A stretch of 64,000 nt of DNA from Gammaproteobacteria bacterium (GTDB lineage Bacteria; Pseudomonadota; Gammaproteobacteria; Eutrophobiales; Eutrophobiaceae): assembly GCA_963923955.1 (NCBI GenBank), contig OZ000552.1, forward strand, positions 870,271 to 934,270, in the 5' to 3' direction. Each line of letters starts with the position of its first letter. Position 1 is the first letter of the stretch. Of this stretch, positions 20,745 to 56,489 are shown in pieces. The position numbers were made by a program, and so were the translations under genes. Below the pieces are notes generated by a model. That model had not been told where the DNA came from. It saw only the letters and a program-made list of their open reading frames with translations, and did not search any database.

Positions 20745-21105
20745 GGGGGCGTGTCTGGCTTCGACGCGAGTATCAAAACCCAAGGGGCATGCCGAGGTGC
20801 AGACTACCTCGTTAATCCATCTGCAAACTCATAGTTGCCAACGACGACAACTACGCACTCGCCGCTTAAATCCCGGTAGGGTGCCGTCTGACCGCAGTGT
20901 GCTTGTACGCGTGGAGCCAGGCGTCGACTCATACAAGCTCGCGATGAAACCTGTCCGGGGTGGATTCGTTAAAGCGTAACGGAATCGTTGTTTGTCTTCC
21001 CTGCCGTTCGGGTAGCACACAATTAAATAAATTGAGCCGGCTAAGCATGTAGAACCGAAGGCAGAGAGCTTGCGGACGCGGGTTCAACTCCCGCCGCCTC
21101 CACCA
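20745..21105 (+). ncRNA. ssrA: Transfer-messenger RNA (tmRNA, ssrA), tag peptide ANDDNYALAA
   Basis: 5' GGGGGCGUGUCUGGCUUCGACG..., 3' ...GGACGCGGGUUCAACUCCCGCCGCCUCCACCA, G3:U acceptor pair, tag ORF GCCAACGACGACAACTACGCACTCGCCGCTTAA; immediately downstream of smpB. Confidence 0.92.
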
Positions 21106-38384: not shown

Positions 38385-38877
38385 CCAAATAGCATCCTCA
38401 AATTCTGGTTTAAGACTAAGAAACCTGCTTGCATTGCGCTTTGTACAAGCCTCGTGAAGGTCTCGGCAAAAACCTTCTCGATGCCGCTAAAACATAAGGG
38501 AAACAAAGATAGGTCAAGGGATAGACACGCCGCGCCCACTTTGTCTGCCTGACAAACAAACCAAGCGAGCGCCGTTTATTTCATCTATGCCTGAGCCTGG
38601 CGGGTCTCACCCGTCGCAACGCTCCTCAGACATATAAAGTGCGGATTATAGTCTATCTAATATTTATATACCAATTAGTTCGCACCATCTCTGGCAAGAT
38701 TCTAGTTCCGGACGAAAAACCCGGCCTGTCGACCGGCCGATTCGCGGCGGCTGAAAACTTTGTTGGATTAACATTGCCAACGGGTTTATACTGGATAAGT
38801 CAAGGGGCTAAGGGTCGCTTTATGGGGGCGGGTTTGCGGCAATAACGCAAAGGCAATTTTATTTAGGATAAAAGCCG

Positions 38878-53664: not shown

Positions 53665-54975
53665 TCACGCCGCCTTGCTCGGCACACCGTCTAAGATGGA
53701 GCGGCCCTGGTGTTCGATCATGTATTCAAACTCGTGGCGGTAGTGTTTTAGGAAACTCTGCACCGGCCAGGCGGCGGCATCACCCAGGGCGCAGATGGTG
53801 CGGCCTTCGATCTTGTTCGCCACATCCACCAGCTTGTCCAGATCGTCGGTCACGCCCTTGCCGTCAATGATGCGCGAGAGCATGCGATACAGCCAGCCGG
53901 TGCCTTCGCGGCACGGCGTACACTGCCCGCAGGACTCGGCGTAATAAAAACGCGAGATGCGGCGCAGCATCCGGACCATGCAGGTGCTCTCATCCATCAC
54001 CACCACGGCGCCGGAGCCGATGGAGGAGCCGGTGATCTTCTGCACCGAGTCGTAATCCATATTCGCCTGCATCATCAACTCGCCCGGCACCACCGGCACC
54101 GACGATCCGCCCGGGATGACGGCCTTTAACTCACGCCCCTTCCAGACGCCGCCGGTCAGCGCCAGCAAGTCCTTGAACGGCATGCCCAGCGGCACTTCAA
54201 AGTTGCCCGGCTTTTCCACATGACCGCTGACGGAGAAGCACTTGGTGCCGCCGCTGTTTTCCACGCCCAGCTCGGCAAACCATGCCGCGCCGCGGCGGAG
54301 GATGCTGGGGACGGAACTGAAGCTCTCGGTGTTGTTGATCGTGGTCGGCCGCCCATAGAGACCGTATTGCGCCGGAAAAGGTGGCTTGAAACGCGGCTGG
54401 CCGGGCTTGCCTTCCAGGGACTCCAGCAGGGCGGTCTCCTCGCCGCAGATATAAGCACCGGCGCCCAGCGTGCCGTAAATATGGATGGTCAAGCCCGTGC
54501 CCATAATGTCCTCGCCCAGCAAACCCTCGGCGTAGGCCTCGGCCAGTGCGCCCTCAAAGCGCCGCCAGGGCTCGTCCATGAATTCGCCGCGGATGTAATT
54601 GTACGCCACGCTTGCGCCCATCGCATAGCAGGCAATCGCCAGCCCCTCAATCAGGGAGTGCGGGTTCAGGCGCAGGATGTCGCGATCCTTGCATGTCCCC
54701 GGCTCGCTCTCATCCGAGTTGCACACCACATATTTTTGCACCGGCGAATCCCCCGCCATGAAGCTCCATTTCAGGCCGGTCGGGAAACCCGCCCCGCCAC
54801 GCCCGCGCAGGCCCGATGCCTTGACCTCTTCGATGATGTCTTTGGGCGGGGTCTGCTCGGCCAAGATCTTTTTCCAGGCCTCATAGCCGCCGACCTTGGC
54901 GTAATTCGCCAGCGTCCAGGGTTGCTTGTACTTCAGCGTGGCGTAGCAGACCGCATTTAGTTTGTCGTCATTCAT
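53665..54975 (-). CDS. nuoF: NADH-quinone oxidoreductase subunit F
   Basis: FMN/NADH site [13 protein letters not shown], 4Fe-4[11 protein letters not shown]; 436 aa. Confidence 0.93.
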
Positions 54976-54995
54976 CGTGTACTTGTTTTGGGAAA

Positions 54996-55217
54996 TTATA
55001 CAAAATTCCGACCATTGCCGATCTTCATCAGGCCTTTCAAGGCCAGGCGGATTTCATCCACCTGTCGCTTGGGCGCGATAAACACGCCTTCCGGCATGAT
55101 TTCAGCCGCTAAAAATTCATCTAAATTGGGAATAGACTGAACCCGCGCGGCAGCGCCAAACAGCCGCTCATAGCCGCCGGAGGCGTCTCTCGGTTTTCTA
55201 TCTGCGATCCTGGCCAT
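54996..55217 (-). CDS. Small hypothetical protein (73 aa) encoded inside the nuo operon
   Basis: ATG at 55217 overlaps the 3' end of the MTase-like gene by 20 nt; ends 20 nt before nuoF; no recognisable domain. Confidence 0.35.
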
Positions 55218-55974
55218 TCAAATCACAACCTATAAAGTTGCGGCGCTGCAAGCGGCAAGCCTCCAGCACAGTAAAATCACCGGCGGCCGGATCAAGCACA
55301 AGATCGCCTTCGTTAGTAACCGCCGCCAGCAGTTGCCCTTGCAAGTCAATAGGCTTGCGGTGCGGATGCGTACCCTTCGGTGCCTTCTCTCGCCAGGTAT
55401 CCGTTATATTGTGGATCTTCCAGACGCCTTTAGCCCTGCGCGGTCGCTTCTGCAACACCACGCAGTATTCGGTTATCCGGCGCGTACGGTAGCCCATGCC
55501 CATCCGGCCCTTGTCCCAGTTCACCATATCGACCACATCGAATGCCGTGCCTGCCAGCCAGGAACGAAAGCCATTGAGCAGTTCAAATTTATCCACCCAC
55601 AAAAACAAATGGCCGCTGGGCATCAGCGCCCGGTCCATGCCCTGCACAAAACGGGCGATGGTTTCATCGTTCATCTGCTTGAGTTCACATCGGGCCTTGC
55701 CCCGGCTCTTACCCTCATTGCCGTAACTCATCTTGTTCAGTATGCCGCGATATTGCGGATCTAAGAAGGCGACTGGAATGGATGCCGGCGGCAGCTGCGC
55801 CAATAACTTCAGCCCGTCCATCTTTAGCCGTTTGTTGGTTTTAATGCCACGCGGCAATTTGATGGTCGGCGGCGCAATGTCGCGTCGGGCGGAGAATACG
55901 GATGCCGCTGCTTGGTCAAAGCGCATGTCTGTTATCGGCTTTATTATGTTCTTGGCAGTTCTGGCCATGCTCAT
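55198..55974 (-). CDS. Beta-class DNA amino-methyltransferase-like protein (PF01555-like) with degenerate motifs, inserted between nuoE and nuoF
   Basis: Motif IV-like FLDPQYRG and C-terminal motif X/I-like HPHRKPIDLQGQLLAAVTNEGDLVLDPAAGDFTV (canonical HPTQKP...DPFxGSGTT); same overall layout as CcrM-type MTases; ATG 55974 lies 12 nt after the nuoE stop. Confidence 0.6.
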   Translation of the reverse strand: MSMARTAKNIIKPITDMRFDQAAASVFSARRDIAPPTIKLPRGIKTNKRLKMDGLKLLAQLPPASIPVAFLDPQYRGILNKMSYGNEGKSRGKARCELKQMNDETIARFVQGMDRALMPSGHLFLWVDKFELLNGFRSWLAGTAFDVVDMVNWDKGRMGMGYRTRRITEYCVVLQKRPRRAKGVWKIHNITDTWREKAPKGTHPHRKPIDLQGQLLAAVTNEGDLVLDPAAGDFTVLEACRLQRRNFIGCDLNGQDRR

Positions 55975-55985
55975 CAATCGTCCGT

Positions 55986-56489
55986 TTATTTCAGGCCGTC
56001 CAGGATGGCGTTGACCTTATCCTTGTTCAGGTTTTCGTGATAGACATGATCGACCATCATCATCGGCGCGGCGCAGCAGGCGGCCAGGCATTCTTCTTCG
56101 TTTTTAAGGTAGATGCGGCCATCGGCGGTGGACTCGCCGGTCTTGATGCCCAGGCGTTTCTCGATGTGCGCCACGATCTCATCGGCACCGCGCAACATGC
56201 AGGAGATGTTGGTGCAGACCGAGACGCTGTGCCGCCCGCAGGGACGAGTCTCCAGCATGGAATAAAAACTCGCCACTTCATACACGGCAATCTTCGGCAT
56301 ATCCAGATAATCAGCCACCGCATCCATCAAGGCGGTGGTGAGATAGCCGCCGTTCTCGTGCTGCGCCTCACGCAAGGCCGCCAGCACCGCGGACTGTTTT
56401 TGATCGGGCGGATATTTTTCTAACCAATGATCGATCTCGGCGCGCAGGTGCGCAGACAAGGCCGGTGTTGCAGTCTCACTCATGCGCAT
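55986..56489 (-). CDS. nuoE: NADH-quinone oxidoreductase subunit E
   Basis: 2Fe-2S thioredoxin-like cysteines (CGRHSVSVCTNISC, CLAACCAAP); start trimmed to MRMSETA with GGAG upstream. Confidence 0.9.
   Translation of the reverse strand: MRMSETATPALSAHLRAEIDHWLEKYPPDQKQSAVLAALREAQHENGGYLTTALMDAVADYLDMPKIAVYEVASFYSMLETRPCGRHSVSVCTNISCMLRGADEIVAHIEKRLGIKTGESTADGRIYLKNEEECLAACCAAPMMMVDHVYHENLNKDKVNAILDGLK

Follow-up and report, generated by a model that had tools for sequence, protein, structure and literature searches.

We have analysed a 64,000-nt stretch of DNA (the window; contig OZ000552.1, positions 870,271 to 934,270) from a gammaproteobacterium of the family Eutrophobiaceae, in which the complex I operon is interrupted at the border of nuoE and nuoF. 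The nuo genes lie on the minus strand of the window in the order nuoB, C, D and E, then an insert of ~1 kb, and then nuoF through nuoN. The insert carries two overlapping genes on the nuo strand, as a preliminary description of the window had it and as the sequence and the coordinates of the open reading frames (ORFs) bear out, i.e. an intact DNA methyltransferase gene and a 73-aa ORF. It is very likely that a restriction-modification (R-M) cassette was inserted between nuoE and nuoF, that its endonuclease has decayed, and that the methyltransferase has been kept as a solitary enzyme.

The endonuclease remnant

The 73-aa ORF (54996..55217, minus strand) starts within the last codons of the methyltransferase gene. 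In two close relatives, L133 (methyltransferase 79% identical to that of the window) and L135 (76%), the methyltransferase gene overlaps with a downstream gene of 225-229 aa. In BLASTP the 73-aa ORF matched the full-length L135 and L133 partners with E values of 2e-20 and 6e-17 respectively, and the same relationship is found in tblastn and DNA alignments. Residues 1-23 of the ORF correspond to residues 1-23 of the partner, residues 24-55 to ~49-82, and the last ~15 residues to the partner C-terminus; two in-frame deletions have occurred, of a 25-aa segment and of a ~128-aa segment. The larger deletion takes out the catalytic E-x-D...E-L-K core, and the (P)D...(D/E)xK motif is absent from the ORF. 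The stop codon of the endonuclease (TAG in L133) is replaced by CGG in the window, so that four further codons are read. The ORF had been described as a partner of unknown function; the BLASTP matches and alignments to the L133 and L135 partners correct this, and we read it as the dead remnant of the cognate PD-(D/E)XK endonuclease. Protein searches with the ORF by itself, as first proposed, did not reveal this origin, which came from comparison with the gene downstream of the methyltransferase in L133 and L135. No homologue besides the ORF itself was found among 5.8 billion proteins, and searches of Pfam, NCBIfam, PHROGs and PADLOC gave no match.

The cassette is preserved whole in seven relatives. 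In L133, L135, L085, L088, L089, L127 and the Campylobacter plasmid L136 an overlapping gene of 220-232 aa follows the methyltransferase gene, and both R-M genes are intact; in the window the endonuclease is reduced to 73 codons, so that a functional Type II system is lacking there. The partner matches the PADLOC REase_II model (E 2.8e-43) and its family has 341 matches, some of them named restriction endonuclease by NCBI. The family invariants are E93-x-D95...E112-L113-K114. An AlphaFold model of the partner (pLDDT 89.5) matches the PD-(D/E)XK enzymes EcoO109I, Cfr10I, PspGI, AgeI and Bse634I. Mobile contexts of the family include a Campylobacter conjugative plasmid, a position beside an IS1595 transposase and an OLD-family nuclease, and a phage-like region. 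At L133 (1696-3961) the gene for the IS1595-family transposase overlaps the methyltransferase start and that for the OLD-family (AAA/TOPRIM) nuclease lies upstream; these surroundings look like a defence-island or mobile context. Observations in the family suggest that endonuclease decay is recurrent; at L137 (3156-3832) the endonuclease gene is split into ORFs of 170 and 55 aa, probably by a frameshift.

We note that a 9-bp hairpin (CAGGUGGAU-GAA-AUCCGCCUG; 55044-55064, minus strand) lies exactly at the junction of the large deletion in the remnant. The 100 nt around it have a folding z-score of -2.5. No U-tract follows, so this is not a canonical terminator.

Identity and activity of the methyltransferase

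The methyltransferase gene (55198..55974, minus strand) runs from an ATG at 55974 to a TAG at 55198 and encodes a protein of 258 aa that is identical to the database protein P0001. A start that fits the family (MAR...) is found at 55968. In the DNA alignment the family stop, following ...GCDLNG (AAT GGC TAA/TAG), corresponds to CAG in the window, thereby adding the four residues QDRR. The family has 3,591 matches, of which the best 120 are 60-80% identical and ~251 aa in length. Scanning metagenome and viral contigs with single proteins brought few close relatives to light, and no motif common to the upstream regions of family members was found.

That this is a beta-class DNA amino-methyltransferase, as first described, is upheld by several comparisons. 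The HMM search with Pfam PF01555 (N6_N4_Mtase) gave a match with an E value of 1e-15 and a score of 58.6 bits, above the gathering cut-off of 26.7, although the alignment covers only the C-terminal third of the protein. The match to the PADLOC MTase_II model PDLC03271 covers nearly the whole length (E 3.5e-81), and there were further matches to several DNA-methyltransferase families of PHROGs. Comparison of the family profile with the PDB returned M.MboIIA, M.BceJIV, the rotifer N4C methyltransferase (N4CMT), DpnA, CcrM and M.RsrI. The AlphaFold2 (AF2) model of the protein (pLDDT 78.6, pTM 0.80) was matched by Foldseek to the beta-class enzymes M.MboIIA, CcrM, M.BceJIV and M.RsrI, with E values of 1e-14 to 1e-11 and TM scores of 0.55-0.65. 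The predicted fold is that of a normal Rossmann-like beta-class methyltransferase.

The motifs quoted in the preliminary description (DPQY, HPHRKP and GDLVLDPAAGDFTV) are all present, and both the catalytic tetrapeptide and the loop binding S-adenosylmethionine had been considered degenerate there, so that the enzyme might be inactive. The canonical (D/N/S)PP(Y/F/W) tetrapeptide and FxGxG loop are indeed not matched, DPQY and AAGDF being found instead. Motif IV is DPQY (residues 72-75; 55750..55761, minus strand), a variant of (D/N/S)PP(Y/F), and the motif I region is DPAAGDF (residues 228-234; 55273..55293, minus strand), a variant of DPFxGSG; HPHRKP (residues 203-208) lies between them, giving the circular permutation of the beta class. 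However, both variants are invariant within the family. In an alignment of 34 sequences DPQYR (D72, P73, Q74, Y75 and R76), HPH.KP and DPAAG(D/S)F are unchanged, with D228, P229, A231, G232 and F234 all invariant, and the DPAAGDF region aligns with motif I of M.MboIIA and M.BceJIV. Compared with 120 family members the window protein deviates at 2 of the 88 columns that are >=95% conserved (I113M and L145F, both conservative), which is within the normal range of the family. One paper reports motif IV of the active GANTC enzyme M.HhaII as DPQYR (PMC4190342), and M.HhaII expressed in E. coli shielded DNA from digestion by HinfI (PMC3973329). DPQY and DPAAGDF are thus a subfamily signature and not decay. 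The methyltransferase of the window is probably active, because many family members adjoin an intact endonuclease, and such a pairing requires a working methyltransferase.

The alternative is that the protein is a dead or repurposed homologue (e.g. a DNA- or RNA-binding factor, or an enzyme with another substrate), since the tetrapeptide reads DPQY in place of DPPY and the glycine loop differs as well. The departure of DPQY and DPAAGDF from the textbook beta-class motifs would fit this, as would the restriction of the Pfam alignment to the C-terminal third; moreover the purifying selection described below is not in itself a guide to the activity being selected. But identical motifs are invariant in members standing beside an intact endonuclease, where cells survive only with a working methyltransferase, and the window protein is 79% identical to one of these (P0002). 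Set against the alternative also are the conserved columns, almost all of them unchanged, the HinfI protection given by M.HhaII with its DPQYR, and the normal beta-class fold that is predicted. We therefore regard a dead or repurposed protein as highly improbable.

The HhaII system of Haemophilus haemolyticus, said to have been described by Schoner, Kelly and Smith in 1983, reportedly acts at GANTC. We take M.HhaII and R.HhaII to be 228 and 227 aa in length, agreeing with the lengths of the PADLOC methyltransferase and endonuclease profiles (228 and 227 positions). By analogy the family is probably of the HhaII type, making N6-methyladenine in GANTC, because of the DPQYR motif, the lack of a CcrM-type C-terminal domain, the PD-(D/E)XK class of R.HhaII and these profile lengths. 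The window protein ends ~20 residues after motif I, with no CcrM-like C-terminal domain; M.HhaII is likewise without it (PMC7672430), and R.HhaII has been classed as PD-(D/E)XK by sequence analysis (PMC2441816). The published cloning primers for M.HhaII (PMC3973329) are too short to inform the comparison. The window resembles HhaII in its beta-class methyltransferase with DPQYR, in the absence of that domain and in the PD-(D/E)XK partner, but differs in that the endonuclease is destroyed, the methyltransferase solitary and the cassette placed inside a chromosomal complex I operon. CcrM and M.HinfI share the fold (Foldseek match to 6pbd, E 6e-14) and possibly the GANTC target; however, the identity is only ~16-18%, and the window protein lacks the ~80-residue C-terminal strand-separation domain. 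CcrM is the textbook solitary methyltransferase turned regulator. Nothing in the window points to a cell-cycle or regulatory use of this kind.

Two other palindromes are depleted in the window. GGNCC is strongly under-represented, with 159 sites observed and 318 expected (observed/expected ratio, O/E, 0.50; z -8.9), and TCNGA has an O/E of 0.57. These depletions are suggestive of restriction systems with such specificities, past or still present, in the lineage.

Age and setting of the insertion

The insert lies between two whole genes. On its left nuoE (55986..56483, minus strand), encoding the 24-kDa subunit of complex I (PF01257, E 6e-49), has an intact C-terminus (...ILDGLK*) that aligns with those of insert-free relatives, and a TAA stop at 55986-55988. 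An 11-nt spacer (ACGGACGATTG; 55975..55985, minus strand) separates this stop from the methyltransferase ATG. The spacer carries a weak GGA(C)G Shine-Dalgarno-like element and is too short for a separate promoter. On the right nuoF (53665..54975, minus strand), encoding the 51-kDa subunit (PF01512, PF10589 and SLBB domains), has an intact N-terminus with its ATG at 54975; between it and the remnant is the 3′ flank of the cassette (54976..55000, minus strand), comprising TATAAT at 54995-55000 and an A-rich leader without a Shine-Dalgarno sequence. The GC content is 0.50-0.58 in the insert and ~0.62 in the flanks.

The locus was compared with that of 80 related gammaproteobacterial species, in which nuoE is 67-80% identical to that of the window. 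In 74 of these the gap between nuoE and nuoF is <=53 nt, and the stop and start codons often overlap (TGATG or TAATG); none of the 80 has the methyltransferase cassette at this position. The operon is thus otherwise contiguous and an insert at this junction unusual, as had been proposed. Whether homologues would be found at the same position in relatives has a divided answer, because one sister lineage shares the insert and the ~80 other species lack it. The sister lineage is represented by the metagenomic contig L134, where the order is nuoD-nuoE-methyltransferase-remnant-nuoF and the junction DNA is homologous on both sides; its left junction (TAAACGTCAATGTTGATG) resembles that of the window. 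L134 is closer to the window than any of the 80 species, with nuoD 88.7% and nuoG 75.8% identical (the best species genome giving 61%), and with nuoE 82% and nuoF 81% identical. The presence of the insert in two independent assemblies (the window and L134) rules out an assembly artefact. An integron cassette or an insertion mediated by an insertion sequence was also rejected for the window, where there is no integrase, transposase or repeat.

The endonuclease of L134 has decayed differently, leaving 14 recognisable N-terminal codons together with C-terminal codons. Within it is a secondary insert (L134:3279-3940) encoding a 125-aa signal-peptide protein and an unrelated 73-aa ORF rich in Pro and Thr; neither ORF has a Pfam match.

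For the methyltransferase, comparison of the window with L134 gives dS 1.19, dN 0.132 and dN/dS 0.11. The corresponding values are 1.38, 0.081 and 0.06 for nuoD, 1.43, 0.142 and 0.10 for nuoE, and 1.13, 0.137 and 0.12 for nuoF. The two methyltransferases are nearer to each other than either is to that of L133. Because the divergence of the methyltransferase matches that of nuoE and nuoF, the data point to one old insertion, in the ancestor of the window and L134 lineages. By the same measure the methyltransferase is under purifying selection as strong as that on nuoE and nuoF. Within the 64 kb it therefore has the attributes of a solitary methyltransferase, i.e. an intact gene, no functional endonuclease beside it and long purifying selection.

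Unidentified reading frames are present in the nqo/nuo clusters of Paracoccus denitrificans and Rhodobacter capsulatus, including at the NQO2/NQO1 (i.e. nuoE/nuoF) border; to our knowledge these are not R-M genes. Two of the 80 species compared have unrelated genes at the nuoE-nuoF border. In L027 (5471-7096) these are a pair on the opposite strand encoding a HicA toxin and a UPF0150 (HicB-like) protein, and in L029 (5486-8298) a 2Fe-2S subunit and a molybdopterin-binding subunit of the aldehyde-oxidase type. The junction seems to be repeatedly tolerant of insertions.

Each part of this history has precedents. Insertion of R-M cassettes at the borders of genes, and within operon-like clusters, has been documented (Furuta et al. 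2010, PMC2853133). The window is similar in that the insertion lies exactly between a stop and the next start with both flanking genes intact, but no long target duplication is detectable, the host operon, that of complex I, has 14 genes, and the insert has been retained over a dS of ~1.2. Solitary methyltransferases may arise partly through loss of the endonuclease, although most were concluded to arrive already solitary (Oliveira et al. 2014, PMC4176335). The window shares with these an intact methyltransferase under purifying selection beside an endonuclease pseudogene; it differs in that decay in situ is seen directly, in the two independently decayed copies of the window and L134. The case is a new instance of a known process (R-M insertion followed by endonuclease loss) and not a new kind of system.

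Expression and wider significance

The history that we propose is as follows. A compact Type II cassette, with the methyltransferase first and an overlapping endonuclease second, would have entered precisely at the junction of the nuoE stop with the nuoF start, in the orientation of the operon and in the common ancestor of the window genome and the L134 organism, leaving nuoE and nuoF whole. The endonuclease gene would then have been destroyed, by two in-frame deletions in the window, and in L134 by trimming, with other DNA coming between its ends. The methyltransferase would have persisted as a solitary enzyme under purifying selection, transcribed by read-through from the nuo promoter, and nuoF-N would depend on transcription through the insert. 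Co-transcription of the methyltransferase with the nuo operon is probable because its ATG is just 11 nt from the nuoE stop and no site resembling a promoter was detected. Terminator-like hairpins in the promoter and terminator scan were not above chance.

In both the window and L134 the coupling of nuoF to nuoE has been lost and nuoF has no Shine-Dalgarno sequence; the preliminary description had noted the latter for the window, and there is no GGAG-type element upstream. nuoF may be translated from the A-rich leader, or following termination of the remnant ORF 20 nt upstream. The second route is weak because L134 keeps no such ORF.

The perfect -10 hexamer at 54995-55000 (minus strand), which had been pointed out previously, is present 19 nt before the nuoF ATG, and L134 has the AT-rich counterpart TATATAA. 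This raises the alternative that the insert supplies a new promoter driving nuoF-N independently of the nuoA promoter. Yet no -35 hexamer is found at a spacing of 16-18 nt from the TATAAT, and a two-hexamer sigma-70 scan of 54700-56300 gave no site where 1.4 would be expected by chance. The base composition leads to an estimate of ~16 TATAAT hexamers by chance in 64 kb on both strands, and the transcript leader would be only ~13 nt. Moreover the 3′ flank of the window (AATTTTGTATAATTTCCC) matches the sequence after the endonuclease stop in L133 (AATTTTATGTAATTCCC) and that in L134 (TTGTATATAACCTCC), so that the TATAAT stretch appears to be inherited from the 3′ flank of the cassette itself. 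Such a promoter is unlikely. We consider it very unlikely that the 73-aa ORF is a selected small protein, either a regulator derived from the endonuclease N-terminus or a translated bridge that delivers ribosomes to nuoF. The ORF does retain its original start within the last codons of the methyltransferase gene, the reading frame is preserved across both deletions, and the ORF terminates 20 nt before the ATG of nuoF. nuoF itself lacks a Shine-Dalgarno sequence, and in insert-free relatives an overlap of the nuoE stop with the nuoF start couples the two genes. But in L134 a stop codon closes the endonuclease frame after 26 codons, and there is no ORF of >=30 aa with its end close to the start of nuoF. 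The kept segments are 39-46% identical to the full-length endonucleases, which share 53-67% identity with one another; this fits relaxed constraint. The lack of any homologue of the 73-aa ORF in the protein search also argues against a selected protein.

A number of points weigh against the reading of an inserted R-M cassette that has lost its endonuclease and kept an active GANTC methyltransferase. A search for target-site duplications and terminal inverted repeats around the insert gave only short repeats at the level of chance, and no mechanistic scar of the insertion could be recognised; the left spacer ACGATTGATGAGC is similar to the nuoF start ACGATGAATGACG, a match too short to count as evidence. 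The probability that both deletions would be in frame by chance is ~1 in 9, which could hint at residual constraint on the remnant. We infer the HhaII/GANTC assignment from the literature, and the depletion of GANTC in the window is no more than mild (O/E 0.76, z -3.0; third lowest of the 16 XYNY′X′ palindromes). The solitary status is that seen within 64 kb, and a functional endonuclease of equal specificity may be encoded elsewhere in the genome. Finally, that the insert is co-transcribed with the operon, and has neither a promoter nor a terminator within it, is likewise inferred.

Other members of the family are found in comparable positions. In L141 (2143-3862) leuS is followed by the methyltransferase and a second PF01555 methyltransferase and then by lptE-holA, the core genes being co-directional, and in L138 (3286-3966) a family methyltransferase next to a divergent metK precedes tkt-gap by 4 nt. 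From this small sample the cassette family may prefer the borders of co-directional housekeeping genes (nuoE/nuoF, leuS/lptE and upstream of tkt) and, more speculatively, might live off their transcription. In L002 (316-786), from a genome that carries a solitary family member, a gene with an Smr domain separates atpG from atpD in the ATP synthase operon. Elsewhere in the window there are an S-adenosylhomocysteine (SAH) riboswitch (38560-38633, minus strand; 63 bits) and a tmRNA gene (20745-21105, plus strand; 220 bits). The riboswitch lies upstream of ORFs of 389 and 472 aa, which, from their size, may be of the metK and ahcY types.

The locus provides a clean natural example of a selfish R-M cassette becoming a host gene, in which two lineages show different decay of the endonuclease and the methyltransferase evolves as slowly as complex I subunits. 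It also corrects an easy misreading, in that DPQY and DPAAGxF mark a large and probably active methyltransferase family. The occurrence of unrelated cargo at the nuoE/nuoF border in three lineages bears on how translationally coupled operons cope with insertions. Should the enzyme methylate GANTC and be co-expressed with complex I, it would make a tractable candidate for a new orphan methyltransferase with a regulatory role in bacteria other than Alphaproteobacteria. Full domestication, in which a GANTC N6-methyladenine enzyme of the HhaII lineage has been fixed in an uncultured gammaproteobacterial clade with its expression tied to complex I, serving as an epigenetic regulator or in genome protection, is a tentative and rather unlikely extension; if true, a CcrM-like orphan would have arisen here separately from that of the Alphaproteobacteria.

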